DNA of 64,000 bases from Mycobacterium sp. Its GTDB lineage: Bacteria; Actinomycetota; Actinomycetes; Mycobacteriales; Mycobacteriaceae. Below the pieces are notes generated by a model. That model saw only the letters and a list, made by a program, of their open reading frames with translations, searched no databases and had not been told where the DNA came from. This document shows positions 14,320 to 61,306 of the stretch, piece by piece. The stretch spans positions 3,982 through 67,981 of the forward strand of contig NZ_DASQVQ010000059.1 in assembly GCF_035640695.1 (NCBI RefSeq). The letters run 5' to 3'. The position numbers and the translations under genes were made by a program. Numbering within the stretch: position 1 is the first letter of the stretch; each line of letters opens with the position of its first letter.

Positions 14320-15697
14320 ACACGGTCTCGCCGTCGCCGCTGACCTTGTCGATGCGCTTGGCCAGATACAAGGCCTCCAAAGCCAATTCGACGGCCGCGG
14401 CACGTTCGCCGTCGGACACCGCGCCCAGGCGCCGCTGGATCACCGCGATCGCCGGCACTTCGGGCACCGCCGCCAGCACATCCTTCGCCGACACCCGCTC
14501 GCCGGTCGTCACCGCCGAACCGTTCTCGATCGCGACCACCAGCGGCCCGACGTCGATGCCGCCGAGCAGCGTCTGCGCGGTGTCGGCGGTGGCCCTGCGC
14601 AGCAAATGCTCGAGCACGGCCTGTTCGCGGCCCTCCTCGCCGGATTCGAATTCGAGCTTGCCGCGCAGCACGTCGATCACTGTGCTCAGGTCGATGACCC
14701 GCGCGACCGGATCCTGTTCGCCGAGCACCGCGGCGCGGTGTCTGGCCGAGGCCGCGACGGTCTCGGCCGCCGCGATCGCGAACCGCGCCGACACGCCGGA
14801 GCGCTGGTCGATCGACCGCGACTCGCGCAGATAGCGGGCGAACCTGGCGAGGATCTGCGTCAGGTAATCCGGCACCTGCGCCGCGAGGTGCGCTTCCTGT
14901 CTGATGACGCCCACCTCGGCGTCCAACTCCAACGGGTAGTGGGTCCGGATCTCGGCGCCGAACCGGTCCTTCAGCGGCGTGATGATGCGGCCGCGGTTGG
15001 TGTAGTCCTCGGGATTCGCGCTGGCCACCACGAGCACGTCCAGCGGCAGCCGCAGCGTGTAGCCGCGCACCTGGATGTCGCGCTCCTCCATCACGTTCAG
15101 CATCGCCACCTGGATGCGCTCGGCAAGGTCGGGCAGCTCGTTGACCGCGACGACGCCGCGGTGCGCCCGCGGGATGAGCCCATAGGCGATGGTCTCCGGG
15201 TCGCCGAGGCTGCGGCCCTCGGCCACCTTGACCGGGTCGATGTCGCCGACTAGGTCGGCGACGCTGGTGTCGGGGGTGGCCAGCTTCTCGGTGTACCGCT
15301 CGCTGCGGTGCTTCCAGGTCACCGGCAGCGCGTCGCCGAGTTCGGCGGCCCGCCGGATCGAGCCCGGGGTGATCGGCCGGTACGGGTGTTCACCCAGCTC
15401 GGCGCCGGCGATCACCGGGGTCCACTCGTCAAGCAGCCCAACCAGCGCGCGCAGCAACCGGGTCTTGCCCTGTCCGCGCTCGCCGAGCAGCACCACGTCG
15501 TGCCCGGCGATCAGCGCGCGTTCCAGCTGCGGAAGCACGGTGTCCTCGAAACCCAGGATGCCCGGCCAGGTGTCCTCGTCCTCGGCGAGCGCCGTCAGTA
15601 GGTTTTCTCGGATTTCTTGTTTGACGCCCCGCTCGCGGTGGCCGGATGCGCGTAGCTCCCCCACCGTGCGGGGCAAGTCGTGAGGTTGGGTCACCAC
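14312..15697 (-). CDS. ChlI/MoxR-like AAA+ ATPase (Rv0958-like 'possible magnesium chelatase')
   Basis: 461 aa, Walker A GERGQGKT, Walker B region VVAVNELPD, ChlI-like core. Confidence 0.85.
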   Translation of the reverse strand: MVTQPHDLPRTVGELRASGHRERGVKQEIRENLLTALAEDEDTWPGILGFEDTVLPQLERALIAGHDVVLLGERGQGKTRLLRALVGLLDEWTPVIAGAELGEHPYRPITPGSIRRAAELGDALPVTWKHRSERYTEKLATPDTSVADLVGDIDPVKVAEGRSLGDPETIAYGLIPRAHRGVVAVNELPDLAERIQVAMLNVMEERDIQVRGYTLRLPLDVLVVASANPEDYTNRGRIITPLKDRFGAEIRTHYPLELDAEVGVIRQEAHLAAQVPDYLTQILARFARYLRESRSIDQRSGVSARFAIAAAETVAASARHRAAVLGEQDPVARVIDLSTVIDVLRGKLEFESGEEGREQAVLEHLLRRATADTAQTLLGGIDVGPLVVAIENGSAVTTGERVSAKDVLAAVPEVPAIAVIQRRLGAVSDGERAAAVELALEALYLAKRIDKVSGDGETVYG

Positions 15698-35177: not shown

Positions 35178-38100
35178 GTGGTCAGCGACTATTGGCCTGA
35201 CTCCGGACATGAGTCCGTTCGGAACTGCACCGCGTGCGGACATGATTTGCGGCCCGCGGCGCGATTCTGCGATGCCTGCGGTTCGCCGGTCAACCCAATG
35301 GGCGCCGTCGGCGAGCGCAAGCAGGTGACGGTGTTGTTCGGTGATGTCGTCGGTTCGATGAGACTGGCGGCGGCGTTAGATCCCGAGCGGCTTCGGGAAA
35401 TAATGTACGAGCTGTTCAACAAGTCGGCGGCGATCGTGCAGCGCTATCGGGGCACGGTGGACAAGTTCACCGGTGATGGCCTGATGGCCCTGTTCGGCGC
35501 GCCGGTAGCGCTCGAAGACCACGCCATGCGTGCATGCATCACGGCACTGGAAATCCAGGCGGCGGCAGAGAAACTCGCCGCCGAAGTGCGCCGTCGCGAC
35601 AACGTCGAGCTGAAGGTCCGGGTAGGGCTCAATTCCGGTGAGGTGGTCGCTGGCGAAATCGGCCGCGGGCCAGGGCGTTACACCGCTGTGGGCCACAGCG
35701 TTGGCATGGCGCAGCGGATGGAGGCAGCCGCGCCACCCGGTACCGTCCTGTGCTCGGAATCGACGGCACGACTCGTTGAGGGTCGCGCACAACTTGGCCC
35801 GACCAATTCCGTGGCCGTCAAGGGTGAGACCCGGCTGATACCGGCACGGCGCCTGTTGTCGGTTCCCGTTCAAGAGACGGTCGTGGGCCGCGACGCGGGC
35901 CCAATGCTTGGCCGCGACGCCGAATTACAAGAAATTATGCGGGTTTTCGATTCGGGAGATGCCTCAGTCATCGGCGTCGTCGGCGAGCCCGGAATCGGTA
36001 AGAGCAGACTCATCCGCGAATTCGCCGCCCGTGTGAGGCGGAAAGAAGCCGACGTCGTCGTCGCTCGGTGCGACGCACACACCGCAGACGTTCCGCTGTG
36101 GGCCTTATCGCGAATGCTGCGCGCGATGTTCGGCGTCAGTCGATTGGATGACCCGGCGGCTCGCGCCCAAGTACTCGAGCGGCTGCCGATTACTGCGCAT
36201 TCCGACGGGGCCCGCGTACTGTTCGATCTACTCGGCATCACGGAGCCGGGTAGCGCACCCGTCGAGCTGAGCCTCGACGCTAGGCACCGCCGACTCGTCG
36301 ACGCCATGATCAAGGCGACCGAATTTCGTTCCCGCCGAGCGGTGTTCATACTCGAGGACGCGCACTGGATCGACGCAGCCAGTGAAGCCACGCTCAGCGA
36401 ATTCGCCGCTTCGCTCTCCGCGCTCCAGTCGACGCTCGTGACCACATACCGCCCCGAATACCGGGGCCCCCTACGCGACCAGCCCGATACCACGATCACG
36501 CTGAGCCCGTTGACCGATGATACAGCGGTCGCAATGGCGGAAGGGCTCATCGGTCACGACCCGACGGTCGGCGGCATCGCCGACCTCATCGCGCGATCGG
36601 CCGCCGGCAATCCTTTCTTCGTCGAGGAGATGGTGCGCGATCTGGCCGACCGCGGCGTGTTGGCAGGCAGTCGGGGCTGCTACCGGCGCCAGGGCGATGT
36701 CGATCCGAGCACGGTGCCGGCAACCGTGCACACAGTCGTCGCCGCGCGCATCGATCGGCTTCCGCCGCAAGCCAAGTGGATCCTCAACGCGGCCGCGGTG
36801 ATCGGGTCATCGTTCGATGTCGATAGGGTGCAGACACTGCTGCCGAACACCGATCGGGATGACCTGGCCGATCTCGTCTCCATGGAACTGATTGATCAAA
36901 TCGAATTCCTGCCTCGCGCACGATACTGCTTTCGGCATCCGCTGATCAGGAAAGTGGCTTACGAATCGCAATTGACCGCCACTCGTGCCGGCGCACACCG
37001 CCGGCTCGCAAGCGCTCTTCAAACACTGCACCCGCCGGCGGTCGACGACAACGCGGCATTGATCGCCACCCATCTGGAGGCCGCCGGCGACCTAAAGCCC
37101 GCCTACGACTGGCACATGCGGGCGGCAAATTGGCTGAAGACGCGCGATATGGTTGCCGCGCGTACCAGCTGGGAACGAGCGCGGCGCATCGCCGACCGAC
37201 TCCCGTCCGAACAGCCGGGAAGCATGGCATTGAGGGCCGCGCCACGAACAATGTTGGTGTGGACGGATTGGTTGGTCGGCGCCGACCCCGACGCCGATAC
37301 GTGCTACGACGAGCTGCGGGCACTCACGGAGCAATCCGGTGACACCCTTTCGCTGGCAATCGGTATGGCCGGGCGGGTGACCGCGTGGTGCGAGAACTAC
37401 AGCCGACCCGTCGCGGCCGCAGCCCTGGCCGCGGAGCTTGCGGGAATGATTGATGACGTCCGTGCCGATCCGATGTCGAAGGCCGACCTGCTGTTCGCCG
37501 TCACGTGGGCACAGTTTGTGGTGTGCGACTTCGAGGCCGTGCTGCGGAACGCCGACCGGATACGGCTCATCGCCGGAAGCGCCGTGACCGGTTCGATCGC
37601 GAGGGCCAATGCGGTGTGCGGGGTGAGCAGGATCCTCAGGGGAGACGTCCGGAGCGGTCGGCGAGAGCTGGCGATCGCAATCGAGCAGGCGCGCCAACTC
37701 GATCCTGTCACCCACGCGGCTGTGATGACGCTGAAGTGCGGTCTGGCCGCCATTGGACTCGAAATTCCCGAAGACACGACGCTCCAGGACGCGCGCGAAG
37801 CACTGAACCGAGCAGAGGAGTTCGGCGACAGGTTCGCGCTCGCGTGCGCGCTGTGGGCCTGCGGGACCCTGCTGCTGCGGATGGAGCGTCATTCCGTAGC
37901 CACCGCGGTTGATTACCTCGAGCGAGCGCGAAGCATCATTACCAAGCACCGGACTGTCACAATTGCGCTGGCACCGATCGAGGCCGACTTGGCCATCGCG
38001 GCCGCGCGCGCCGGGGATCGAGATGTTGCGATTGATTCGGTACGCGCAGCCCTAATCCGCCAATATGAGAATTTCGACTTCATGTTTCTCGGCGTCACGA

Positions 38101-38360
38101 CCACCGCGCTCGTCCAACTTCTCGTCGACAGGAGCGGCGCCGACGACATCGCCGAGGCCACGGCATGGGCGCAACGACTCGAAGGCCAAGCCTCACAATT
38201 GACACTGCCGACATTCGAGTTGTCCGCGGCCTTCTGTCGAATCGTGATCACCCGCTCAGGCGGGGACGCGGCGCTATCGACGGCCCAGTATCTGGACATT
38301 GCCCAACGACTCGACGCCCGAGGGAAATTCCTGGTGCTGCATCCGGTAGCGACGACCTGA
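35178..38360 (+). CDS. Zinc-ribbon - class III adenylate/guanylate cyclase - STAND/AAA ATPase - TPR-like repeat protein (no HTH)
   Basis: 1060 aa. CTACGHDL..FCDACG; cyclase motifs VTVLFGDVVGS, DKFTGDGLMALFG; P-loop GEPGIGKSRL; long helical repeat C-terminus ending without a LuxR-type HTH. Confidence 0.85.
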   Translation: MVSDYWPDSGHESVRNCTACGHDLRPAARFCDACGSPVNPMGAVGERKQVTVLFGDVVGSMRLAAALDPERLREIMYELFNKSAAIVQRYRGTVDKFTGDGLMALFGAPVALEDHAMRACITALEIQAAAEKLAAEVRRRDNVELKVRVGLNSGEVVAGEIGRGPGRYTAVGHSVGMAQRMEAAAPPGTVLCSESTARLVEGRAQLGPTNSVAVKGETRLIPARRLLSVPVQETVVGRDAGPMLGRDAELQEIMRVFDSGDASVIGVVGEPGIGKSRLIREFAARVRRKEADVVVARCDAHTADVPLWALSRMLRAMFGVSRLDDPAARAQVLERLPITAHSDGARVLFDLLGITEPGSAPVELSLDARHRRLVDAMIKATEFRSRRAVFILEDAHWIDAASEATLSEFAASLSALQSTLVTTYRPEYRGPLRDQPDTTITLSPLTDDTAVAMAEGLIGHDPTVGGIADLIARSAAGNPFFVEEMVRDLADRGVLAGSRGCYRRQGDVDPSTVPATVHTVVAARIDRLPPQAKWILNAAAVIGSSFDVDRVQTLLPNTDRDDLADLVSMELIDQIEFLPRARYCFRHPLIRKVAYESQLTATRAGAHRRLASALQTLHPPAVDDNAALIATHLEAAGDLKPAYDWHMRAANWLKTRDMVAARTSWERARRIADRLPSEQPGSMALRAAPRTMLVWTDWLVGADPDADTCYDELRALTEQSGDTLSLAIGMAGRVTAWCENYSRPVAAAALAAELAGMIDDVRADPMSKADLLFAVTWAQFVVCDFEAVLRNADRIRLIAGSAVTGSIARANAVCGVSRILRGDVRSGRRELAIAIEQARQLDPVTHAAVMTLKCGLAAIGLEIPEDTTLQDAREALNRAEEFGDRFALACALWACGTLLLRMERHSVATAVDYLERARSIITKHRTVTIALAPIEADLAIAAARAGDRDVAIDSVRAALIRQYENFDFMFLGVTTTALVQLLVDRSGADDIAEATAWAQRLEGQASQLTLPTFELSAAFCRIVITRSGGDAALSTAQYLDIAQRLDARGKFLVLHPVATT

Positions 38361-41765: not shown

Positions 41766-42721
41766 CCGACGTAGCGGCTCAACCAGTCGTTGAGCCGCTT
41801 CCACGCATCGGCCGATGCGGCGGCGTTGTACCGCGGCCCCGTGTCGTTGAAGAACGCGTGGTCGGCGTTCTGCTCCACGACCAGATCGCTGATCATGCCG
41901 GCCCGGTCCAGCGCCGCCTTTGCGGCTTGTTCGCTCGATGTGACGCGGGTGTCCAGTGAGCCGTAGAACGCCAGCACCGCCGCCTGCTTGGAGCCGGAGA
42001 AGTCCGGATTGTCCGGCAGCGGGCCGTAAAACGGAACGGCTGCGGCCAGCCGCGGTTCACCGGAGGCCAGCAGCCGCCAGACGAGTCCGCCGCCGAAGCA
42101 GAAGCCCACCACGGCGAGTTTCTTGTCGGGGACCCGGCGCTGCACCTCGTCGACGCCGGACTTCAGGTCGGCGACGAACCTCTCGGGCGGGACATTGCCC
42201 AGCGCCGCGGTCGCCTGCGCCGGGTCGGTAAAGGTTGCGGTGCCGCCCTCTTCGGAGAGCAAGTCGATGGCCAACGCCGAATAGCCTGCGCCGGCTAGTC
42301 GTGCCGCCACCGAGCGCACCCAGTCGTTGAGTCCCCTGTTCTCGTGAATGACCAGAACGCCGCCGCGGGCGTTCGAAGCCTCGGCCCAGGCACCGGACAG
42401 TTCGCCGTTCGGGCCCGGCCATTTCACCGCCACCGTCGGCACGGTGTGCTCCGCACCTGGCGGCGGTGCGGGCGGCCCGCTGGTTGTTGAGGGCTCCGGC
42501 GTCGTCTTCTTCTCCTCGCCACAGGCGGCGATCAGAGCCGTGGCCGCCGCCGTGCCGACCCCGAGCAGAGCCAGTCGACGCAGAGCCTCACGGCGCGAAA
42601 GCAGCCCGTCGACGTGATCGGTGGCGATTTCTTCGGCGATATAGCGCTGCAGTGGTGTCACGTTGGCGAGTATGCGCCTACAACCTCGCGCGTCAATGTG
42701 TATTGAATCTGGCGGTTTCAT
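41762..42721 (-). CDS. Dienelactone hydrolase family protein with Tat/lipoprotein-type signal
   Basis: SRREALRRLALLGVGTAAATALIAACG signal, VLVIHENRGLNDW, nucleophile motif GFCFGG. Confidence 0.8.
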   Translation of the reverse strand: MKPPDSIHIDARGCRRILANVTPLQRYIAEEIATDHVDGLLSRREALRRLALLGVGTAAATALIAACGEEKKTTPEPSTTSGPPAPPPGAEHTVPTVAVKWPGPNGELSGAWAEASNARGGVLVIHENRGLNDWVRSVAARLAGAGYSALAIDLLSEEGGTATFTDPAQATAALGNVPPERFVADLKSGVDEVQRRVPDKKLAVVGFCFGGGLVWRLLASGEPRLAAAVPFYGPLPDNPDFSGSKQAAVLAFYGSLDTRVTSSEQAAKAALDRAGMISDLVVEQNADHAFFNDTGPRYNAAASADAWKRLNDWLSRYVG

Positions 42722-42725
42722 CCGT

Positions 42726-42737
42726 CACCGGCCGGTG
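42726..42737. promoter_or_regulatory. Perfect 12-bp palindrome in the DLH / cheB-like divergent spacer
   Basis: caccggccggtg is self-complementary. A second inverted repeat, ttaccc-N7-gggtaa (42765-42783), lies 10 nt upstream of the cheB-like ATG. Confidence 0.3.
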
Positions 42738-42792
42738 CCATGCTGAGTGCATGAAGAAGGTTGCTTACCCGCCGCGTGGGTAACCAAAAACA

Positions 42793-43824
42793 ATGACCAG
42801 CTCGTCGACCGCAGGACCTTCCACACCACGAGGCGTGGTAGCGGTCGGCGCGTCGGCGGGCGGCGTTGAGGCGCTGACCGACTTCGCCTCCGGCCTGCCT
42901 CGCGACCTTCCATATGCGGTCCTGGTCGTCTTGCACATACCACCCGACGCGCCCAGCGTGCTGGCAAAGATACTGGACCGCAGCGGGCCGTTGCCCGCGG
43001 TACCCGCCACGCACGGCGCCGAGCTTGAGCCCGGCACAATCCACGTCGCCGTACCCGATCGTCACCTGCTTATCCACGACCACCGGGTGGTCCTGTCGGA
43101 TGGCCCCACCGAGAACGGTCACCGCCCGGCTATCAACGCGCTGTTTCGATCCGTCGCCCTCGGCTACGCCCAGCGCGCGGTGGGGATACTGCTGTCAGGT
43201 GTCCTCGATGATGGGGTGCTGGGATCGGCGGCAATCCGCAGTCGAGGGGGGACGACTATCGCGCAGCAGCCTTCCGGCGCCATGTTTTCGGGGCTGCCGC
43301 TCAACGCTGTCCAGGCCGGCGTGATCGATCACGAGATACCGGCCGCAGAGATGGGAGGTCTTCTCAAAGAGCTGGCCGATCGGGAATTCGAGGAGCGAGA
43401 AATGGAACCCGACCCGCGCATGGAACTAGAGAACCGAATCGCCATGGAAAAGCGATTCTCTACCTCATTCGACGCCGGGGCGTTGGGTCCGCCGTCGGGA
43501 TACACCTGCCCGGACTGCAACGGCGGCCTCATGGTCGTCAGCGACGGCAACTTCAGATGCTGGGTCGGCCATGCGTGGACCGCCAATTCATTGCTGCGCG
43601 CACGTGATGCCGAGGTAGAGTCGGCCCTCTGGATCGCCGTGCGCAGCCTGCAGGAAAAGGCCAAACTGTCACGACGGCTGGCCGAAAGCATTGGTCCCAG
43701 CGGGCTATCCCGAAGATACAGTGCGATGGCGGACGAGGCCGAACACGCCGTGTCGGTGCTCAGCGATCGCCTCTCCGAGGCGTACGGAGACATGGGTGAA
43801 TCGGGGGGCGTAAGTGCCAGTTGA
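42793..43824 (+). CDS. CheB-type protein-glutamate methylesterase catalytic domain (no REC) with C-terminal zinc-ribbon/helical extension
   Basis: Catalytic triad context GASAGG (Ser), VVLHIPP (His), LSGVLDDG (Asp). C-terminus CPDCNGGL..FRCWVGHAW. Confidence 0.85.
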   Translation: MTSSSTAGPSTPRGVVAVGASAGGVEALTDFASGLPRDLPYAVLVVLHIPPDAPSVLAKILDRSGPLPAVPATHGAELEPGTIHVAVPDRHLLIHDHRVVLSDGPTENGHRPAINALFRSVALGYAQRAVGILLSGVLDDGVLGSAAIRSRGGTTIAQQPSGAMFSGLPLNAVQAGVIDHEIPAAEMGGLLKELADREFEEREMEPDPRMELENRIAMEKRFSTSFDAGALGPPSGYTCPDCNGGLMVVSDGNFRCWVGHAWTANSLLRARDAEVESALWIAVRSLQEKAKLSRRLAESIGPSGLSRRYSAMADEAEHAVSVLSDRLSEAYGDMGESGGVSAS

Positions 43825-44575
43825 TCGAGGACATTCGCTGGTCGTGTCCGAGACGCTCACCGCGGGCACCCACGTTCTGGTCGCGCAGGGTGTCCTGGAC
43901 AGCGCCACGTATCTCGGGCTGCGGGACCGAATCATCAAGGCGGCGCTCGATGATGCCCGCGCGGTGATCATCGACGTGACCGAGCTGGGGATTCCGGCCG
44001 AGTCTGCGCTGGCGGTGTTCACCAGCGCCCGGTGGCATGTGGGCCAATGGTCGAATGTGCCGATCGCGCTGGTGTGCTCGACGCGGTCGGGCCGACATGC
44101 CATCGGGCGCAATGGCATTACCCGGTATGTGCCCGTTTACCCGACCGTCGGGACCGCCCTCGACGAGCTGTCGCACGACGACCGTCGGCTCCTTCGGCGC
44201 CGGGCCCGCACCAAACTGCCCGCGATCACCGCCAGCGTCGCCCACTCGCGAGAGTTTGTGGCCGAGTGGCTGACATATTGGCAGCAGGCCGAGTTCATCG
44301 CTGTGGCCAAGATGATCGTGACCGTCTTCGTCGAGAATGTGCTGGCCCACACCGACAGCGAGCCGGCGATCCGCCTCGAGACCGACGGCGCGACAGTGAC
44401 TGTCGCCGTCGACGACGGCAGCACCATCCGGGCCGGCCGCCGGGAGGAGCCGGACGGCCGTGAGCGAGTATCGGGCCTCGCCATTGTCGCCGCGTTGAGC
44501 CGGCGCTGGGGTAACGCGCCAACTCCGACTGGCAAAACGGTCTGGGCCGTGATCGGTCCTGAAAATCGCCTCTGA
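43814..44575 (+). CDS. STAS (anti-sigma antagonist) domain fused to an RsbW/SpoIIAB-like HATPase_c domain
   Basis: N-terminal STAS-like beta-alpha pattern (VLVAQGVLDSATYLGLRDRI...AVIIDVTEL). C-terminal N-box FVENVLAHT, G1 VDDGS, G2 SGLAIVAAL..WG. GTG start overlaps cheB-like by 11 nt. Confidence 0.75.
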   Translation: MPVDRGHSLVVSETLTAGTHVLVAQGVLDSATYLGLRDRIIKAALDDARAVIIDVTELGIPAESALAVFTSARWHVGQWSNVPIALVCSTRSGRHAIGRNGITRYVPVYPTVGTALDELSHDDRRLLRRRARTKLPAITASVAHSREFVAEWLTYWQQAEFIAVAKMIVTVFVENVLAHTDSEPAIRLETDGATVTVAVDDGSTIRAGRREEPDGRERVSGLAIVAALSRRWGNAPTPTGKTVWAVIGPENRL

Positions 44576-44624
44576 GCGCGAGTAAAGTTCCGTCCGCGGC
44601 AGTGTTGTCGGGCGGACGGGACGC

Positions 44625-46463
44625 ATGAACGGCGAAAACGACGAGGCATTTGAAGCCCTTTTGCGCTACCTGAGGGATTCGCGCGGATTCGACTTCACCG
44701 GTTACAAGCGCAACTCGCTGATGCGTCGGGTGCGGCACCGGATGGAGCAGGGCGGACACGAGTCATTTGAGCAATACCTCGACGTGCTCCAGGCCAGCTC
44801 GGACGAGTTCGCCGCGTTGTTCAACACGATTTTGATCAACGTCACGGACTTCTTCCGCGATCCCCCGGCGTGGGACTACCTCCGGCAACAGATCATCCCG
44901 TCGATGCTCGCCGAACGCGGCCCCAACGACCCGATTCGGGTGTGGAGCGCGGGCTGCGCGTCCGGCCAGGAGGCCTACACGTTGGCGATGGTGTTGGCCG
45001 AGGCACTCGAGCCGGACGCCTTCCGCCAACGCGTCAAGATCTATGCGACCGACGTTGACGAGGAGGCGCTCACCGAGGCGCGGGCCGCGTCCTACGAAGC
45101 CAAGGCCGTCGAATCGGTGCCCGAGGAACTGCTCGAGCGGTACTTCGAAAACAGCGGCGGGCGCTACGTCTTTCGCAGCGACCTTCGCCGAGCAGTGATC
45201 TTCGGCCGCAACGACCTGGTGAAGGACGCGCCGATTTCTCGGGTGGATCTGCTGGTCTGCCGCAACACCTTGATGTACCTGAACGCCGAGACGCAGCAAA
45301 CTGTCTTGGGGCGCTTGCATTTCGCTCTGGCAGCCAGTGGGATACTGTTCCTTGGCCACGCCGAGATGTTGCTCAGTCACACCGATCGGTTCATACCGCT
45401 GAACCTCAAGCATCGCTTTTTCCGCAAGGCCGCGGGCTCTCATCGTATCGAGTGGTTTGACCCGGCGATGGCATTGGCGGACCGCCACGGCGACCTAGTT
45501 GGGCTTGACCCACTTCGCGACATGGCGTTCCGGGCCAGCCCGGTCGCGCAGATCGTGGTGACCGCCGATGACACCGTCGCGATGATCAACCAGCACGCCG
45601 AAAGCATGTTCGGGCTCTCGGCACGTGACATCGGCCGCCTGCTGCGAGATCTTGAGGTGTCGTACCGGCCGGTCGAACTGCGTGCCTACATCGAGCAGGC
45701 AAAGTCGGAGCGACGGTCCCCCCGTATCCAGGACGTGAAGTGGCAGCGACCGGGCACAGACACCGTATGGTTCGAAATCCACGTCAATCCGCTGATCGAC
45801 GCCGAGCGCGGGCTGCTGGGTGTGTCGATTGTGTTTTTCGACGTCACCGCGACCAGGGCGCTGCTGGACAAGGTCGTCCAGACCAATCGCCAGCTCGAGG
45901 CGGCCTACGAGGAGTTGCAGTCCACCAACGAAGAGCTCGAAACCACGAACGAGGAGCTGCAGTCGACCGTCGAGGAGCTCGAAACCACCAACGAGGAGCT
46001 GCAGTCGACCAACGAAGAGCTCGAGACGATGAACGAGGAGCTGCAGTCGACCAACGACGAACTGCACACCATCAACGACGCGCTGCGGGAACGCAGTTCC
46101 GAGCTCGATGACGCCCGGAACTTCCTCCGTTCACTGGTTGATTCTGTCCATCTCGGCATGGTCGTGGTGGACCGCGAGATGCGAGTGGTGGTGTGGAACC
46201 AGCGATCCGAAGAACTCTGGGGACTGCGCGCGGACGAAGCGACGGGCTCGGACCTCACCGGATTGGACATCGGGCTGCCGGTCAGTGAAATCCGGCCGCT
46301 CATCGGCAATTCCTTCGTCGATCCGAACAACGCCGGCGAAGCCGTGGTCGACGCGGTGAATCGGCGTGGCCGGCCGATCCGCGTCCGCGTCACCTGCGCG
46401 GCGTTTCGGGCCGACGAGCAGGCGGTCAACGGCGCGTTGTTGCTGATGGAAGTTCAACGGTAG
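44625..46463 (+). CDS. CheR-type SAM-dependent methyltransferase - PAS - heptad coiled coil - PAS (no output domain)
   Basis: CheR_N FDFTGYKRNSLMRRV, SAM site IRVWSAGCASGQEAYTLAM. Two PAS-like segments flank EELQSTNEELETTNEEL... 612 aa. Confidence 0.85.
   Translation: MNGENDEAFEALLRYLRDSRGFDFTGYKRNSLMRRVRHRMEQGGHESFEQYLDVLQASSDEFAALFNTILINVTDFFRDPPAWDYLRQQIIPSMLAERGPNDPIRVWSAGCASGQEAYTLAMVLAEALEPDAFRQRVKIYATDVDEEALTEARAASYEAKAVESVPEELLERYFENSGGRYVFRSDLRRAVIFGRNDLVKDAPISRVDLLVCRNTLMYLNAETQQTVLGRLHFALAASGILFLGHAEMLLSHTDRFIPLNLKHRFFRKAAGSHRIEWFDPAMALADRHGDLVGLDPLRDMAFRASPVAQIVVTADDTVAMINQHAESMFGLSARDIGRLLRDLEVSYRPVELRAYIEQAKSERRSPRIQDVKWQRPGTDTVWFEIHVNPLIDAERGLLGVSIVFFDVTATRALLDKVVQTNRQLEAAYEELQSTNEELETTNEELQSTVEELETTNEELQSTNEELETMNEELQSTNDELHTINDALRERSSELDDARNFLRSLVDSVHLGMVVVDREMRVVVWNQRSEELWGLRADEATGSDLTGLDIGLPVSEIRPLIGNSFVDPNNAGEAVVDAVNRRGRPIRVRVTCAAFRADEQAVNGALLLMEVQR
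45909..46097 (+). repeat. 9 x 21-bp (heptad) in-frame tandem repeat, 42-bp super-period
   Basis: gaggagttgcagtccaccaac gaagagctcgaaaccacgaac gaggagctgcagtcgaccgtc ... Encodes EELQSTN EELETTN EELQSTV EELETTN EELQSTN EELETMN EELQSTN DELHTIN DALRERS. Confidence 0.95.
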
Positions 46464-46474
46464 CGGGCGCTACC
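46459..46474. terminator. Short GC hairpin spanning both convergent stop codons (possible bidirectional terminator)
   Basis: ggtagc-gggc-gctacc: 6-bp stem (7 if g-c closes), containing TAG of the cheR-like gene and CTA of the minus-strand ORF. No U-tract. Confidence 0.25.
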
Positions 46475-46853
46475 GGCTCTCTCGCTCGTCGACTTGCGCC
46501 GCCGCCTCGTGAAGTTCGGCCAGGTCTCGGTGGCGGGCGGCTGCTTCTTGACGGGAGTTGCCCTCGCCGTCGCCGGCGTGGATGGCCGCCTGCTCATGGG
46601 CGGCCGCGGCCAATCGGTGGGCTCGCCCGGCGTCCCTGTGCTTTGCCGCGGCCGCTCCATGGGCACGCTTGGCACGTGTGAGTGCCTCGTCAAGGCGCTG
46701 GCGCGCCAAGTTCAGCGACTCCGGGGTGGCCGCTATGCCCTGCGCCAGCTCAGCTCGCCGACGCTGCAACTCGTCGGCCCTGGCCTTCGCCGAGGCTGCC
46801 CGGTCGGCTGGACCTTCGGCGCTCTCGCCCCGCTGAGGCGGCGCGGTGGTCAT
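46470..46853 (-). CDS. Hypothetical Ala/Arg/Glu-rich helical protein
   Basis: 127-aa ORF with no recognisable family. Coding status rests only on ORF length and position between annotated genes. Confidence 0.4.
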   Translation of the reverse strand: MTTAPPQRGESAEGPADRAASAKARADELQRRRAELAQGIAATPESLNLARQRLDEALTRAKRAHGAAAAKHRDAGRAHRLAAAAHEQAAIHAGDGEGNSRQEAAARHRDLAELHEAAAQVDERESR

Positions 46854-46943
46854 CGCGGCGGCTCACTTGCGTGGCGGGCTCGCACGACGGCATGCGTCAG
46901 CGCCACGACTCGCGGGCGTGTGGATTCGCGCGGTTCAGCTACC

Positions 46944-47180
46944 ATGGCGCTCACCTCGATGGATGACCTGCCACAACGGTACGCGCATTTGGTCGGCGCC
47001 GGGAGAAAAAATCGGCCGCGTACCCTTGCTCGGTACAGCCTCGTCGTCATCGGCTGGATGTGGGCGCTGAAGTTCGCCTCGTATGAACAGTCGCTGGTGT
47101 CAGAGCGCCCGCTGCGGCTTTCCGGCGTTGTCGTTTAACGGCGAATTCCTGATCAAAGATGTTGCGCTGTGGGAATTTCG
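46944..47180 (+). pseudogene. DUF417 (YkgB-like) membrane protein remnant with internal deletion/frameshift
   Basis: Frame 0: ARYSLVVIGWMWALKFASYEQSLV resembles the DUF417 N-terminus (E. coli YkgB ..FMWIGLLKFVPYEADSI). After a stop at 47138, another frame reads GEFLIKDVALW, like the family C-terminus (GRLVLKDTLML). About 110 central residues are missing. Confidence 0.55.
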
Positions 47181-47211
47181 GTGTGAACGCTGCCCGACTC
47201 GATCGCCGCGA

Positions 47212-48423
47212 TCAGCCGCGCCGCTTCCGAGGAGTCGTGATCAGCGTGGCATCGATCACCGCGGCGCTGAGCACATGATCCAGAACCATCGTGGCGCTTC
47301 CGACGACGCCGGACTGGTCGCCGTAGGTGGACGGAACCACCTGAAGTACCCGGGTGGCCAGAGCCGTTGCGTTGCCATACAACGTTTCCCTCAGGCCGGC
47401 GACGAAGACGTCGTACGCCTTGGCCATGTCACCGGCGACCACCAGGACCGCGGGGTTCAGCAGATTCACCGCGCCGGCGACGACTTCGCCAACATGGCGA
47501 CCGCTCTCCCGGATCATCCGGCGGGCGTCTGAGTCGCCGCTGTTGGCGAGTTCCACGACATCCCGGATGTGTCCTACGGCGCGGCCCTGCCGCTGAAGTG
47601 CCCGCACCAGGGCCCAGCCCCCGGCGACAGCCTCGAGGCAACCCGTATCCCCGCAGCGGCACGGCACTCCGGCGGCCGCAGGGATCTTGTTGTGACCGAG
47701 TTCTCCGGCGGCTTCGACGGCGCCATGTTGTAGCACCCCGCCGCAGATGATGCCGGCACCAAGGCCGGTGGACGCCTTGAGTACCAGCAGGTTTTCGAAA
47801 GCCCTTCGATCACCACGGCTTTCGGCCAACGCGATGACATTGGCGTCGTTGTCGGCGATCACGCGCGCCTCGGTCAGCTCGCCGAAGTACGGCGCTAACG
47901 GGACGCCGTCCCAGCCACTCATGATCGGCGAACTGAGGCTGCACGCGCGCTCACGGTCGACGGTGCCGGGCAGCGACAGACCGACGCCATAAATACGGTC
48001 GCCGCGGTGACCCGATTCCTCCAACAACACATCGAGCCGCTTGACCACGTCGGGCATCAAATCGTCCGCTCCAATGCCCGGCTCCTGGTCGATGTCGGCG
48101 AGCACCAAAACTTCACCGGCGAGGTTGCATACGGCAAGGCGGGTGCGGCTCCGACCGATCGCGGCGGACAACACCACGCCCCCGTCGGCGTTGAACGTCA
48201 ACAGCGTCGCCGGCCGACCCCCGGTGGACGGTGCTTGCTCACGCTCGATCACAAGCCCTCGGTCGGTGAGCGGCGACAAACGCGCCGACACCGCCGTGCG
48301 CGACAGACCGGTGAGTTGACCGATCTCAGCGCGGGTAGTGGCCTGCCGGTGCCGGATCAGCGCATAGATGTCGCCCGCAGTCGTCGCCGACGCATATGTC
48401 CTGGATAAGGCCATGCCAACCAT
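47212..48423 (-). CDS. ROK family transcriptional regulator
   Basis: N-terminal wHTH (TTRAEIGQLTGLSRTAVSARLSPL), sugar-kinase-like fold, ROK zinc motif H..CRCGDTGCLE. Confidence 0.85.
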   Translation of the reverse strand: MVGMALSRTYASATTAGDIYALIRHRQATTRAEIGQLTGLSRTAVSARLSPLTDRGLVIEREQAPSTGGRPATLLTFNADGGVVLSAAIGRSRTRLAVCNLAGEVLVLADIDQEPGIGADDLMPDVVKRLDVLLEESGHRGDRIYGVGLSLPGTVDRERACSLSSPIMSGWDGVPLAPYFGELTEARVIADNDANVIALAESRGDRRAFENLLVLKASTGLGAGIICGGVLQHGAVEAAGELGHNKIPAAAGVPCRCGDTGCLEAVAGGWALVRALQRQGRAVGHIRDVVELANSGDSDARRMIRESGRHVGEVVAGAVNLLNPAVLVVAGDMAKAYDVFVAGLRETLYGNATALATRVLQVVPSTYGDQSGVVGSATMVLDHVLSAAVIDATLITTPRKRRG

Positions 48424-57985: not shown

Positions 57986-60298
57986 TCACTCCTGCGCGAC
58001 ATCGGCGGGGCTCTTGTCCGGTCGCAGCCCACGCCAGCTCGGGTGACGCAGCCGGCCGTCACCCGTCCATTCGCTGTAACGCACCTCACCGACGAGCTTC
58101 GGCTCAACGAATGTCACGCCCTTGGCGTCCTGCGTGGGAAGCCTTGCCGTGAACGGTGATTCGTCGGTTTCCAGCGGCCCCAAGACCTTCTTGAGCCGCG
58201 CAAGCTCGCGTTCGGTGAAACCGGTACCGACGCGCCCGACGTACTGCAGCCGCCCATTGTCGGGAATGCCCATCACCAAGGAGCCGATGCCGCTGGTGCG
58301 GCCGCCGGTTCCCTCTTTCCAACCGCCGATCACGACTTCCTGGGTGTTCCAGTTCTTGTCTTTGACCCACGACTGCGACCGCCGACCCGGCTGATACGTC
58401 GAGTCCCACCGCTTGGCCACGACCCCTTCCCAGCCGCGCCTGCGCGATTCCTCGAGCGCCTCGGCGCCGTCGCCGGTGAGCAGGTCCTTGACGATGAGCT
58501 CGTCGCGGTCGCCAGCCAGTGCCTCAAGGATGCGGCGCCGATCGCGGTATTTGGCGCGCACCAGCGACCGCCCGTCGAGTTCAAGCACATCAAACGCCCA
58601 GTACTCGATGCGCGTCGCGCGGGCGCGGTTCTGCATCTCACCGAAGCTGGGCACACCGGACTCGTCGAGCGCGACAACCTCGCCGTCGAGCAGCACGTGG
58701 TGGTCGAACAGTGCGTTGACGACCTGCCGCAGCTGCGGATACTCATGGGTGACATCACGACCGCTGCGCGACTGCAGGCACATGCTGCCGTGGTCCGCGA
58801 CCATCAGCAGTCGATAGCCGTCCCACTTGCCATCGAACGCCCACTGCGCGGCCCTCAGCTTGGTCACCGACCCAGGCGTTGCCAGCATCGGTGCGAGATC
58901 TTGCGGCGTCGGCGACTTTTGGTCCTTCATCCGATGGGCCAGCCACTGATCGCCGTTCGTCTGGATGAGTGCGTAGCGGCCGGACACCCGGTTGCCGTGC
59001 AGGTTGACGATCACCTCGTTGTCGCGGAATTTCTCCGCGTCATAGGTCCCGGTGTCCCAGACGATCATCTTGCCCGCGCCGTACTCACCCTTCGGGATCG
59101 TCCCCTCGAACGTCAGATACTCCAGCGGGTGGTCCTCGGTATGTACCGCAAGATGATTCACCGCGGGCGTCTCGGGCAGATTCTTCGGCACCGCCCAGCT
59201 GACCAGCACGCCGTCGCGCTCCAGCCGCAGGTCGTAATGCAGCCGCCTGGCGTGATGTTCCTGGATGACGAACACATTGTTCTTTCCCGCCTTGGGCGCC
59301 GAGCCGGGCACGGGCTCCGGTGTTTTCGACGCGTCCCGCATGCTTCGGTACCTCGTCAGCCGGTCCTCTTGCGCGATGTCCGCATCGAGCGCCTCCAGCA
59401 GATCACCATCGCGCGCCACGCGGGCCAGCACCTCGTCATAACGCAGATGCCGCAGCCTGTCGTCATCGAGTTCCGCCCATGTCCGGGGCGCGGCCACGGT
59501 CGGCTGCTCCCTTCCGCGCAGCGAGTACGGCGCGATCGTGGTTTTCGAAGCGTTGTTCTGACTCCAGTCGACGAACACCTTCCCCGCCCGAAGCTTCTTG
59601 GTCATTGTCGAGGTCACCAGCTTCGGCGTGGCCTGTTCCAGCTGCTGGGCGACCCGTCGCGCCAGTGTCACCGCGCCCTGCGAGCTGACCGGCTTGTCCA
59701 GCGGCACGTACAGGTGAATACCCTTGCTGCCGCTGGTGACGGGGTAGGTAGTCAAGCCGATATCGGTGAACAGGTCCCGTATCGTGCGCGCCACATCGGC
59801 GAGCTGCGACATCGTCACGCCCTCACCGGGATCGAGGTCGAACACCAAACGCGTTGCAGGGCCAGGCTTTCCGTCGACGAATCGCCATTGCGGCACGTGC
59901 ACCTCGAGCGCTGCCTGCTGGGCGATCCACGCCAGCCCAACGGAGTCGTCGATCACCGGATAGGTGGTCGTTCCGGACCGGTGCACGACGGACTCGCGGT
60001 GCAGCCAGTCGGGCGCCGACTCGGCGAGTTGCTTTTCGAAGAACGACGGTTCCTCGACGCCGTTGGGCCAACGTTTGCGGGTGACGGCGCGGCCGGCGAT
60101 GTGGGGAACCATCACCTCGGCGATGCTGGTGTAGTAGCCGAAGACGTCTTCCTTGGTCGTGCCGGTTGCCGGATAGAGCACCTTGTCGGCGTTGCTGAGG
60201 CGAACCTGCGGCCCCGAGGTCACCCCCGGTGGCCATTCGTGCGGTACGCGCTTCATTTCGACGGGATTCCCTGACATTCGCACTGATGAACGTTCCAA
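57986..60298 (-). CDS. ligD: Multifunctional NHEJ ligase LigD (polymerase/primase - phosphoesterase - ATP ligase)
   Basis: LSNADKVLYPATGTTK, FVIQEHHARRLHYDLRLE, ligase C-terminus. Collinear with remembered Mtb Rv0938. The true start may be an internal Met (60277 or 60256). Confidence 0.95.
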   Translation of the reverse strand: MERSSVRMSGNPVEMKRVPHEWPPGVTSGPQVRLSNADKVLYPATGTTKEDVFGYYTSIAEVMVPHIAGRAVTRKRWPNGVEEPSFFEKQLAESAPDWLHRESVVHRSGTTTYPVIDDSVGLAWIAQQAALEVHVPQWRFVDGKPGPATRLVFDLDPGEGVTMSQLADVARTIRDLFTDIGLTTYPVTSGSKGIHLYVPLDKPVSSQGAVTLARRVAQQLEQATPKLVTSTMTKKLRAGKVFVDWSQNNASKTTIAPYSLRGREQPTVAAPRTWAELDDDRLRHLRYDEVLARVARDGDLLEALDADIAQEDRLTRYRSMRDASKTPEPVPGSAPKAGKNNVFVIQEHHARRLHYDLRLERDGVLVSWAVPKNLPETPAVNHLAVHTEDHPLEYLTFEGTIPKGEYGAGKMIVWDTGTYDAEKFRDNEVIVNLHGNRVSGRYALIQTNGDQWLAHRMKDQKSPTPQDLAPMLATPGSVTKLRAAQWAFDGKWDGYRLLMVADHGSMCLQSRSGRDVTHEYPQLRQVVNALFDHHVLLDGEVVALDESGVPSFGEMQNRARATRIEYWAFDVLELDGRSLVRAKYRDRRRILEALAGDRDELIVKDLLTGDGAEALEESRRRGWEGVVAKRWDSTYQPGRRSQSWVKDKNWNTQEVVIGGWKEGTGGRTSGIGSLVMGIPDNGRLQYVGRVGTGFTERELARLKKVLGPLETDESPFTARLPTQDAKGVTFVEPKLVGEVRYSEWTGDGRLRHPSWRGLRPDKSPADVAQE

Positions 60299-60382
60299 TC
60301 CGGTATACGCGAAAAGCTTGCCCGAAGCGTCGCCACCAGCGCCCGCGGTTTCGGATCAGGCCAGGTGGGCCATACTTGCCGT

Positions 60383-61306
60383 ATGCGTTCCATCTGGAAG
60401 GGCTCGCTTTCGTTCGGGTTGGTGAACGTCCCGGTCAAGGTGTACAGCGCGACCGAGGACCATGATGTGAAGTTTCACCAGGTCCACGCGAAGGACAACG
60501 GGCGGATTCGCTACAAGCGGGTGTGCGAGGTCTGTGGCGAGGTCGTCGACTATCGCGATATCGCCCGGGCTTACGAATCCGATGACGGGCGCATGGTCGT
60601 CATCACCGACGACGACATTGCGACGTTGCCCGAGGAGCGCAGCCGGGAGATCGAGGTCCTGGAATTCGTGCCCGCTAGCGAGATCGATCCGTTGATGTAC
60701 GACCGTAGCTACTATCTCGAGCCGGATTCGAAGTCGACAAAGTCCTACGTTTTACTTGCGAAGACACTCGAGCAGACCGATCGGGTCGCGATCGTGCACT
60801 TCGCGCTGCGCAACAAGACGCGGCTTGCCGCTTTGCGGGTCAAGGATTTCAGCAAGCGCGAAGTCATGGTGATCCACACGCTGCTGTGGCCCGACGAGAT
60901 CCGTGATCCGGACTTCCCGGTACTGGACAAAAAGGTTGAAATAAAACCGGCCGAACTCAAGATGGCCAGTCAGGTTGTCGAGTCGATGGCCGACGATTTC
61001 AATCCCGATCGCTACCACGACACCTATCAGGAAGAGCTACGCGAACTCGTCGAGGCGAAACTGGAAGGTGGTGAAGCGTTTACCACCGAAGAGCAGCCCA
61101 AGGAGCTTGAGCCCACCGAAGATGTCTCGGACTTGTTGGCCGCGCTCGAAGCCAGCGTGAAGCGCCGCCGCTCCGAGGCCCGCGAAACTCCCGCCAAGAA
61201 AGCACCTGCCAAGAACGCCCCCGCCAAGAAGTCTGCCGCGAAGAAGGCGCCGGCGAAAAAAGCATCCAGCAAGGCTCCCGCCAAGAAGGCCGCGGCCAAG
61301 AAGTAG
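60383..61306 (+). CDS. ku: NHEJ DNA end-binding protein Ku with Lys/Ala/Pro-rich C-terminal tail
   Basis: MRSIWKGSLSFGLVNVPVKVYSATEDHD canonical bacterial Ku. Tail PAKKAPAKNAPAKKSAAKKAPAKKASSKAPAKKAAAKK. Confidence 0.95.
   Translation: MRSIWKGSLSFGLVNVPVKVYSATEDHDVKFHQVHAKDNGRIRYKRVCEVCGEVVDYRDIARAYESDDGRMVVITDDDIATLPEERSREIEVLEFVPASEIDPLMYDRSYYLEPDSKSTKSYVLLAKTLEQTDRVAIVHFALRNKTRLAALRVKDFSKREVMVIHTLLWPDEIRDPDFPVLDKKVEIKPAELKMASQVVESMADDFNPDRYHDTYQEELRELVEAKLEGGEAFTTEEQPKELEPTEDVSDLLAALEASVKRRRSEARETPAKKAPAKNAPAKKSAAKKAPAKKASSKAPAKKAAAKK
61190..61303 (+). repeat. PAKKA-type low-complexity repeat tract (Ku tail)
   Basis: Repeated cccgccaagaa / gcgccggcgaaaaa units encoding (P/S)AKK(A) motifs. 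Confidence 0.85.

Follow-up and report, generated by a model that had tools for sequence, protein, structure and literature searches.

Three co-directional genes in a 64 kb stretch of a Mycobacterium sp. genome (contig NZ_DASQVQ010000059.1; the whole stretch of 64,000 nt is referred to here as the window) encode, in order, a CheB-type methylesterase, a fusion of a STAS domain to a SpoIIAB-like domain, and a CheR methyltransferase that continues into two PAS domains separated by a coiled coil. This triplet is best explained as a functional three-gene signalling operon, ancient in the Mycobacteriales and independent of chemoreceptors, and is not a remnant. Chemoreceptors are the one known class of substrate of the textbook enzymes CheR and CheB, and mycobacteria are non-motile and are not known to have flagella or chemoreceptors; in the triplet, CheR and CheB have been kept under selection over the long term in bacteria without chemotaxis. 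Because no receptor is encoded nearby, and because the coiled coil is extremely conserved and rich in Glu, the most likely substrate of the two enzymes, judged from sequence, is the coil of the methyltransferase protein itself. The three genes are as follows.

42793–43824, forward strand: gene 1, a REC-less CheB-type protein-glutamate methylesterase/glutaminase of 343 amino acids (aa) with a C-terminal tail.
43814–44575, forward strand: gene 2, an Rv0941c-type fusion of STAS and SpoIIAB/RsbW-fold (GHKL) domains, 253 aa.
44625–46463, forward strand: gene 3, CheR_N and CheR methyltransferase followed by PAS, coiled coil and PAS, 612 aa.

A first-pass annotation of this DNA had described three co-directional genes, the first two overlapping by 11 nt and the third lying 49 nt further on, and this is exact by the open reading frame (ORF) coordinates, the start of gene 2 lying over the stop of gene 1. 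The GTG start of gene 2 is supported by its homologues, which begin at the same place; one gene caller puts the start 10 codons downstream, giving a protein of 243 aa. In Pfam scans, none of the 48 ORFs called over the window had an MCPsignal, CheW or CheA domain, a single-domain CheY, or a flagellar or sigma-factor domain, in agreement with the earlier statement that no gene for a methyl-accepting chemotaxis protein (MCP), CheA, CheW, CheY, flagellar component or sigma factor is present. The sole REC protein of the window is an OmpR-type regulator (460–1152), and within the window CheB and CheR do not belong to a Che cluster of the kind in which MCP, CheA and CheW are encoded alongside them.

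The close homologues of the triplet proteins are all from Mycobacterium or Mycolicibacterium (57–84% identity). A scan of one genome per species confirmed 418 relatives of gene 2, the best 80 of which all came from Mycobacteriaceae, and the locus counts that follow refer to these 80 loci together with three others. Of the roughly 80 Mycobacteriaceae species loci, 38 have the three genes intact and in the order of the window, 24 have gene 2 alone, and some 20 hold fragments, frameshifted copies or truncations at contig ends. Some have clear remnants, for example L001 and L007 in our numbering, where the last 76 codons of CheB abut gene 2. CheB and CheR occur together, in that neither is intact in a species locus where the other is traceless; the closest to such a case is L023, in which CheB is intact and CheR is reduced to residues 1–44. 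On the gene 2 tree, solo and triplet species are interleaved, from which it follows that CheB and CheR have been lost many times.

Where the triplet is retained, all three genes are under purifying selection. Against 38 orthologues, CheB has a ratio of non-synonymous to synonymous substitution (dN/dS) of 0.18, gene 2 of 0.29 and CheR-PAS of 0.14, values which are approximate because dS, at 1.1–1.4, is near saturation. When all flanking ORFs of the 38 loci were clustered and the recurrent clusters annotated, the recurrent neighbours were a luciferase-like monooxygenase, AurF, tetrapyrrole methylase, AraC, Fpg, SDR, holin-like, MFS and GAF-ANTAR proteins; no MCP, CheA or CheW was among them or in the annotated loci. 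The annotation had held that adjacency to such genes would mark an ordinary chemosensory remnant, and among the recurrent neighbours of the 38 loci there is no such adjacency. The many independent losses, fragments and frameshifts, the stop codon in the M. smegmatis CheB gene and the want of a receptor are what decay of an ancestral chemosensory system into a triplet with no present function might leave behind. Such an origin of what is now seen is nevertheless most improbable, since all three ORFs are intact in the window and in 38 other species, dN/dS is 0.14–0.29, the catalytic residues do not vary, other phyla widely carry this module in the absence of Che genes, and no remnants of MCP, CheA or CheW flank any locus.

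The neighbourhood of the three genes is kept across deep divergence and rearrangement. In Amycolatopsis sp. cg9 a tail-type CheB, a 248 aa homologue of gene 2 (35% identity, E value 1e-30) and CheR-PAS occur in the same order with a 4 nt overlap. In Nocardia arthritidis CheB adjoins CheR-PAS, and a full-length gene 2 homologue (37% identity, profile E value 5e-56) is convergent just downstream; the arrangement differs and gene 2 is still adjacent, so the neighbourhood has survived rearrangement. A metagenome scan seeded with the divergent homologues yielded eight soil contigs with the order CheB, gene 2, CheR, in which gene 2 is 30–42% identical to the copy in the window, and seven contigs with informative flanks that are without CheB and CheR. 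Conservation as a unit, on which the first-pass annotation had staked its proposal, is accordingly seen in the 38 of about 80 loci, in Amycolatopsis and in the eight soil contigs, and in rearranged form in Nocardia. We consider this retention across divergence and rearrangement to be the strongest evidence tying gene 2 to the two enzymes.

It is also the evidence that has to be set against the view that gene 2 is independent, for example as a STAS/anti-sigma paralogue in the SigF network, and merely co-transcribed with an unrelated CheB/CheR-PAS sensor, one that signals to some other output or has no partner protein encoded in the operon. Gene 2 is solo in at least 24 species and, we presume, in M. 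tuberculosis; it is conserved to the same degree whether or not the triplet is present, no column being specific to either group, and CheB/CheR-PAS pairs exist elsewhere without it. MSMEG_5551 and Rv0941c have been discussed solely as STAS/anti-sigma paralogues (10.1101/2020.01.15.907535; PMC1847690). Against such independence, two lineages in which gene 2 is only 35% identical also have it between the CheB and CheR genes, with overlapping stop and start, and in Nocardia it is again adjacent after rearrangement; chance co-transcription would not be expected to last over that distance. Independence of gene 2 thus seems to us unlikely, if by no means far-fetched. What is clear is that gene 2 has a role that does not need CheB or CheR, because it persists with unchanged constraint where they have been lost.

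The case for the coil as methyl acceptor comes from gene 3, whose parts are listed below.

44646–45413, forward strand: CheR_N helical domain and S-adenosylmethionine (SAM) methyltransferase domain, aa 8–263, from Pfam and from alignment to CheR of B. subtilis and P. aeruginosa; 79–80% identical among orthologues.
45525–45854, forward strand: PAS domain 1, aa 301–410 (Pfam PAS, PAS_9, PAS_4 and PAS_10).
45903–46091, forward strand: nine-heptad coiled coil, aa 427–489, of [ST]-N-E-E-L-x-[ST] repeats; the candidate methyl-accepting segment.
46119–46460, forward strand: PAS domain 2, aa 499–612 (Pfam PAS and PAS_8).

The Pfam matches comprise CheR_N (3.3e-15), CheR (1.1e-54, profile positions 1–193 of 195) and two PAS domains, with no output domain found by Pfam; together with the repeat analysis of residues 427–489, they bear out the earlier reading of gene 3 as CheR, PAS, a nine-heptad coil and a second PAS with no output. 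Both CheR families (PF03705 and PF01739) are thus matched over full profile length, and CheR structures in the PDB (5ftw, 4e-35; 1af7, 7e-27) align along the whole methyltransferase part. The basic helix of CheR_N (YKRNSLMRRVRHR), the face that contacts acidic methylation helices in Salmonella CheR, is retained. Orthologues across the Mycobacteriaceae, including those of M. smegmatis, M. fortuitum, M. colombiense and M. kyorinense, are about 80% identical and carry the JGI product name 'CheB/CheR fusion protein'. A match of gene 3 to PF28159 is to CEP89 and was set aside as coiled-coil noise.

Six E-E-x-x-[ST]-[ST] motifs recur along the coil at intervals of exactly seven residues. The classical methylation motif of MCPs is Glu-Glu-x-x-Ala-Ser/Thr, and the coil repeats resemble it. 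Median identity over the 38 orthologues is 93% for the coil, compared with 80% for the CheR domain, 83% for PAS domain 1 and 67% for PAS domain 2; nowhere else in the operon is conservation as high as in the coil. Its residues 428–486 (59 residues) are 100% identical to those of the Amycolatopsis protein, the two whole proteins being 63% identical. Beyond the mycobacteria, the repeat was found in nine of nine CheR-PAS proteins encoded next to a tail-type CheB, and is common to the Azospirillum, Rhizobium, Methylocystis, Amycolatopsis and Nocardia proteins and to three metagenome proteins. A match of the coil to MCPsignal (E value 4e-4; 20.7 bits against a cut-off of 34.6) was discarded, as about 50 unrelated coiled-coil families score similarly.

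The first-pass annotation had proposed a non-MCP target, possibly gene 3 itself or the STAS fusion. The conservation of the coil and its MCP-like E-E-x-x-S/T-T heptads favour the former. The latter, or some unlinked protein, would leave the coil as a mere dimerization or signalling helix, and in its support one may cite that earlier suggestion, the four invariant Glu residues of gene 2 (E174, E189, E211 and E250) and the failure of the coil to fit a strict methylation pattern. Complete identity over 59 residues between families exceeds what dimerization needs, however, and the coil travels with CheR in all relatives, including those without gene 2; moreover, gene 2 has no paired Glu-Glu heptads, and solo gene 2 is unchanged in the absence of the enzymes. 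A substrate other than the coil is in our estimation decidedly unlikely.

Gene 1 has the catalytic equipment that demethylation would require, in the following arrangement.

42832–43377, forward strand: CheB catalytic domain, aa 14–195, with triad S21/H48/D140.
43489–43581, forward strand: CCCH zinc-ribbon-like element, aa 233–263, with C239, C242, C256 and H260.
43582–43788, forward strand: helical hairpin of the CheB tail, aa 264–332, from the AlphaFold 2 model.

Pfam CheB_methylest (PF01339) matches residues 16–189 (E value 1.9e-50), and the protein begins at the catalytic domain, with no Response_reg match and hence no REC domain of the canonical kind; the NCBIfam CheB models score 128 bits against a cut-off of 342. 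Alignment to 1A2O and 1CHD equates S21, H48 and D140 with S164, H190 and D286 of Salmonella CheB, the three residues are invariant in 27 orthologues, and the predicted structure matches CheB catalytic domains in Foldseek with TMt of 0.86–0.88. In the same 27-orthologue alignment the tail residues C239, C242, C256 and H260 are invariant. The model predicts beta-hairpins at residues 245–263 (pLDDT, the model's per-residue confidence, 50–65) and two long antiparallel helices at 264–300 and 304–332 (pLDDT 50–75), and a SLQEKAKLSRRLA motif is conserved in the helical hairpin. The description of a REC-less CheB with an intact triad and a zinc-ribbon/helical tail is therefore sustained by Pfam, by the alignment, by the invariant CCCH residues and by the model. 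The tail, of about 150 residues, matches no Pfam family, and a Foldseek search of the PDB with the whole model matched the catalytic domain only.

In M. smegmatis (GCA_024085085.1) the CheB orthologue (L083:8195–9208) has an in-frame stop near the position of window Y124 and is called as two proteins of 119 and 214 aa; gene 2 and CheR-PAS are intact at the same locus, CheR-PAS being 81% identical. This species may lack CheB esterase because of that stop. A second short CheB_methylest protein (about 195–211 aa, tail-less) is encoded in addition to the tail-type CheB in some loci, namely in Amycolatopsis (L090:7327–7962) and in a further locus (L095:1731–2318).

Gene 2 consists of two domains.

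43841–44173, forward strand: STAS domain, aa 10–120, with S64 at the N terminus of helix 3.
44195–44572, forward strand: anti-sigma-factor-like GHKL domain, aa 128–253, with degenerate ATP-binding motifs.

Searches found 1973 homologues. The STAS domain is matched by Pfam (1.5e-6, residues 19–115), and an AlphaFold model built with 26 homologues has a mean pLDDT of 85. Foldseek places the STAS half with M. tuberculosis RsfB (8ih8), SpoIIAA (1th8_B) and RsbV at TMt of about 0.8, RsfB and 4qtp being matched by profile also, and the C-terminal half with SpoIIAB (1l0o_A, TMt 0.69; 1th8_A), UsfX (8jzt_B) and the RsbW domain of Rv1364c (3ke6_B), so that both a STAS fold and a GHKL fold are present. 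The sequence of the C-terminal half is less telling: no HATPase Pfam match was found at E≤0.01, there is a weak match to NCBIfam RsbA_anti_sig (2.5e-4), and profile searches of PDB sequences with gene 2 matched the STAS half only.

The motifs of the C-terminal half were placed by hhalign to SpoIIAB, whose sequence was checked against the PDB beforehand; the alignment is not significant (E value 0.21) and was used for register alone, in which it agrees with the fold match. In this register N175, H179 and D201 correspond to SpoIIAB N50, H54 and D81. The general base, SpoIIAB E46, is V171 in gene 2 and V, T, A or S across the Mycobacteriaceae, G83 of the G1 box is S203, and the G2 box has the sequence G-L-A; the lid, too, is short. 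The Amycolatopsis and Nocardia homologues retain the N-box Glu (ELVENV) but are without the G1 and G2 glycines. The signature of a kinase, namely N-box Glu and Asn, G1 DxGxG and G2 GxG, is thus not found, the Glu being replaced and the glycines absent. The first-pass annotation had described a STAS–RsbW fusion with G1 box DDGS and G2 box GLAIV; on the model, Foldseek upholds the fold, and in the hhalign register those box assignments fall. The catalytic residues of CheB and CheR are intact, the CheB triad being invariant; the kinase motifs of gene 2 are degenerate.

Because these motifs are degenerate, gene 2 is probably a pseudokinase in which the binding surfaces have been kept, and this is the most economical reading of it. 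Phosphotransfer to the STAS Ser appears unlikely, given the loss of the general-base Glu and of the G1 and G2 glycines. The residue at the position of SpoIIAA S58, S64 in gene 2, is S in 65 and T in 5 of 70 Mycobacteriaceae sequences, S in Amycolatopsis and Pro in Nocardia. That gene 2 might be an active RsbW-like serine kinase acting on its own STAS Ser under the gating of methylation, as was proposed at first, could be argued from the SpoIIAB-like fold, the retention of N175, H179 and D201, the near invariance of S64 and the N-box Glu of the non-mycobacterial homologues. The related multidomain protein Rv1364c is likewise reported to autophosphorylate its STAS domain (as cited in PMC7693655). 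This serine-kinase reading does not hold up well: the general-base Glu is lost in the Mycobacteriaceae, the glycines are missing family-wide, the lid is short, there is no HATPase match, and Nocardia has Pro at the S64 position. In addition, Rv0941c failed to phosphorylate Rv0516c, which is a different substrate (unpublished data in PMC1847690). We regard kinase activity of gene 2 as very unlikely.

No sigma-factor gene was found in the window or in the conserved neighbourhood. In Nocardia arthritidis (L091:8923–10269) the gene 2 homologue, with Pro at the STAS Ser position, lies beside a separate STAS-only protein of 132 aa. An alignment of the whole gene 2 model to LvrC (9qih), a response regulator of Leptospira, spans 298 columns with a poor fit (TM about 0.35, root mean square deviation 14); LvrC may be another STAS and GHKL protein.

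Gene 2 lies, by Pfam-level gene order, between a block of Fpg, SDR and PGI genes and LigD/Ku, an interval which we take to be the position of Rv0941c on the H37Rv map. From synteny and architecture we infer that gene 2 is probably orthologous to Rv0941c, which is presumably solitary in M. tuberculosis, CheB and CheR being absent. The fusion of STAS and SpoIIAB domains is itself not new, having already been described for Rv0941c in 2007 (PMC1847690). The M. smegmatis counterpart of gene 2 is probably MSMEG_5551, listed as an uncharacterized STAS protein that may feed into the control of SigF (10.1101/2020.01.15.907535).

Our current working hypothesis, which we advance tentatively and would place somewhat short of an even chance, is that the coil is self-methylated, that CheB erases the methyl groups, and that the Rv0941c-type protein reads the result through partner switching. 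The CheR domain would, within a dimer, methylate the second Glu of the E-E-x-x-S/T-T repeats in its own coil, acting on the same chain or on that of its dimer partner. For docking, the CheB tail would serve in place of the receiver domain and pentapeptide tether, holding the REC-less CheB on the gene 3 protein, where it would remove the methyl groups. The methylation helices of MCPs are tuned by the neutralization of charge on methylation. In our own assignment of the register, each heptad of the coil presents two Glu at the surface and an Asn in a core position, and for this reason methylation, by neutralizing the Glu charge, would be expected to adjust how stable the coil joining the PAS sensors is, or which register it adopts. 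The change in the coil would in turn couple the PAS sensors to the reader. In proteobacterial relatives the methylation state would be read by a fused or adjacent histidine kinase, and in Mycobacteriales by gene 2, by binding and not by phosphorylation, such that the STAS domain competes with, or releases, the anti-sigma-like domain for a partner, which may be a sigma factor, SigF for instance. In addition, gene 2 would have a role of its own, as it persists where CheB and CheR have been lost. A more specific proposal is that CheR-PAS is a self-methylating soluble receptor whose methylation sets its affinity for the STAS/pseudokinase, which then holds or releases a sigma factor; this we think rather unlikely to be correct in full.

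Several observations weigh against the hypothesis of a methylated coil read by gene 2. The chief of these is that no column of gene 2 is conserved only in the triplet-bearing species, its mean conservation being 0.68 in solo and triplet species alike. Loss or decay of CheB and CheR has occurred repeatedly, the M. smegmatis CheB having a premature stop, and the near saturation of dS blunts the dN/dS values. The coil fits E-E-x-x-A-S/T only if Ser or Thr is allowed in place of Ala, and the stricter pattern [ASTG]2-x2-[EQ]2-x2-[ASTG]2 has no match in it. Lastly, in two metagenome loci the tail-type CheB/CheR-PAS pair is alone, with neither gene 2 nor a kinase nearby.

The CheB/CheR-PAS pair is no mycobacterial oddity. 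Tail-type CheB and CheR-PAS-coil together make up a two-gene methylation module which is widespread and which is found where MCP, CheA and CheW are absent. Among 1.84 billion cluster representatives (50% identity), 2036 clusters matched the tail-type CheB of about 340 aa at E<1e-30, and the best 150 of these are mostly of about that length, with near full-length matches at 36–55% identity. Distant relatives of the CheB/CheR-PAS pair were reached through these representatives and through plasmid records, and tail-type CheB occurs in Amycolatopsis, Nocardia, cyanobacteria, Azospirillum, Rhizobium, Paraburkholderia and Methylocystis. In Proteobacteria it adjoins large CheR-PAS-coil proteins, usually with histidine-kinase outputs. 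Rhizobium etli p42f encodes a 1324 aa CheB-CheR-PAS-HWE_HK protein flanked by response regulators, as does Rhizobium sp. N731; Azospirillum has a 754 aa CheR-PAS-coil-PAS protein, with the architecture of gene 3, beside a PAS-HisKA-HATPase kinase and a response regulator; and in Methylocystis a 1034 aa fusion adjoins an ATP-binding protein. The triplet shares with this family, which as the 'CheB/CheR fusion protein' family presumably corresponds to KEGG K13924, a CheR followed by PAS and the NEEL-heptad coil and paired with CheB. It does not share the histidine-kinase output, fused or adjacent, for neither gene 3 nor the genes next to it have a HisKA, HWE_HK or HATPase_c domain by Pfam. The picture is of a portable methylation core (tail-type CheB, CheR, PAS and EE-heptad coil) with interchangeable readers, the position of the reader being held in Mycobacteriales by the Rv0941c-type protein.

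The literature searched, of which our coverage was incomplete, contained no functional account of the triplet or of the CheB/CheR-PAS family and no description of the coil as substrate; mentions were limited to domain-level notes on Rv0941c and MSMEG_5551 and to a passing 'CheB/CheR HK'. The triplet gives a context to Rv0941c, which has been without a role since its mention in 2007. Should the coil prove to be the substrate, reversible Glu methylation would be a general means of tuning soluble PAS sensors, beyond chemotaxis, and thousands of 'CheB/CheR fusion' proteins in the databases would gain a testable mechanism. Were the gene 3 protein indeed a self-methylating receptor, it would bring methylation-based memory into sigma-factor partner switching in non-motile actinobacteria, and would supply a first function for Rv0941c and for the large family of 'CheB/CheR fusion' sensors. 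Triplet species, species with the regulator only, and M. smegmatis with its broken esterase together offer a natural experiment.

The nearest flanking genes of the triplet are unrelated to it, being a divergent dienelactone hydrolase upstream and a convergent ROK regulator downstream, and the farther flanks encode AurF, tetrapyrrole methylase, Fpg, SDR, PGI, an adenylate cyclase with AAA_16, G6PD and LigD/Ku. An ORF at 46494–47138 was rejected as a fourth gene, its translation being Arg-rich, noise-like and of no family, and a scan of 42300–47300 for promoter and terminator consensus sequences gave nothing exceeding shuffled expectation. In other loci there are further neighbours that are absent from the window. 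A GAF-ANTAR regulator is convergent just downstream of CheR-PAS in 10 of the 38 intact loci and in M. smegmatis (L083:12212–12928; L062:11000–11773), and in one metagenome locus (L095:4165–5920) CheR-PAS is separated from tail-type CheB by ANTAR and GAF-ANTAR genes; GAF-ANTAR may be a second recurrent partner of the CheB/CheR-PAS module. In 19 of the 38 loci CheR-PAS is followed immediately, on the other strand, by a conserved ORF of 134 aa without a Pfam family (L057:10627–11028 and equivalents). Elsewhere in the window, about 4.4 kb upstream of the triplet, 35178–38360 (forward strand) encodes a protein of 1060 aa that has a zinc ribbon at its N terminus together with adenylate/guanylate cyclase and AAA_16 ATPase domains. 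Divergent LigD (primase-polymerase, phosphoesterase and ligase) and Ku genes at 57986–61306 form a non-homologous end-joining locus syntenic with other mycobacterial loci. Two neighbouring ORFs at 14606–15601 (215 and 97 aa), with first-codon-position GC of 0.90–0.93 and no Pfam family, may encode Gly/Ala/Pro-rich proteins.

All parts of the triplet are of known families, and the chemistry proposed for it is that of chemoreceptor adaptation. Like the canonical CheR and CheB of E. coli and Salmonella (1AF7 and 1A2O), its enzymes have homologous catalytic domains, with an intact triad and a SAM-binding domain, and the chemistry proposed would be alike also, namely reversible methyl-esterification of paired Glu at heptad spacing in a helical coiled coil. 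Unlike the canonical system, the triplet is without MCP, CheA, CheW and CheY, its CheB has a tail in place of REC, its CheR is fused to PAS-coil-PAS, and its host is non-motile. With the 'CheB/CheR fusion' family, as exemplified by Rhizobium etli p42f, it has in common the CheR-PAS-NEEL-coil-PAS core and the tail-type CheB of about 340 aa; the members of that family have kinases and response regulators, whereas in the triplet an Rv0941c-type protein stands between the enzymes. Gene 2 resembles Rv0941c in its two-domain fusion and in its chromosomal neighbourhood, as judged by Pfam-level gene order against the H37Rv map, and differs in being accompanied by CheB and CheR, where the M. tuberculosis gene is presumably alone. 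Both of its halves share the folds of SpoIIAA/SpoIIAB and RsbV/RsbW, and in Rv1364c kinase-fold and STAS domains are likewise found in one chain. In comparison with these partner-switching modules and with Rv1364c, gene 2 has the order STAS then GHKL, degenerate ATP motifs, no PP2C and no adjacent sigma factor, and the input proposed for the triplet is methylation and not phosphorylation.

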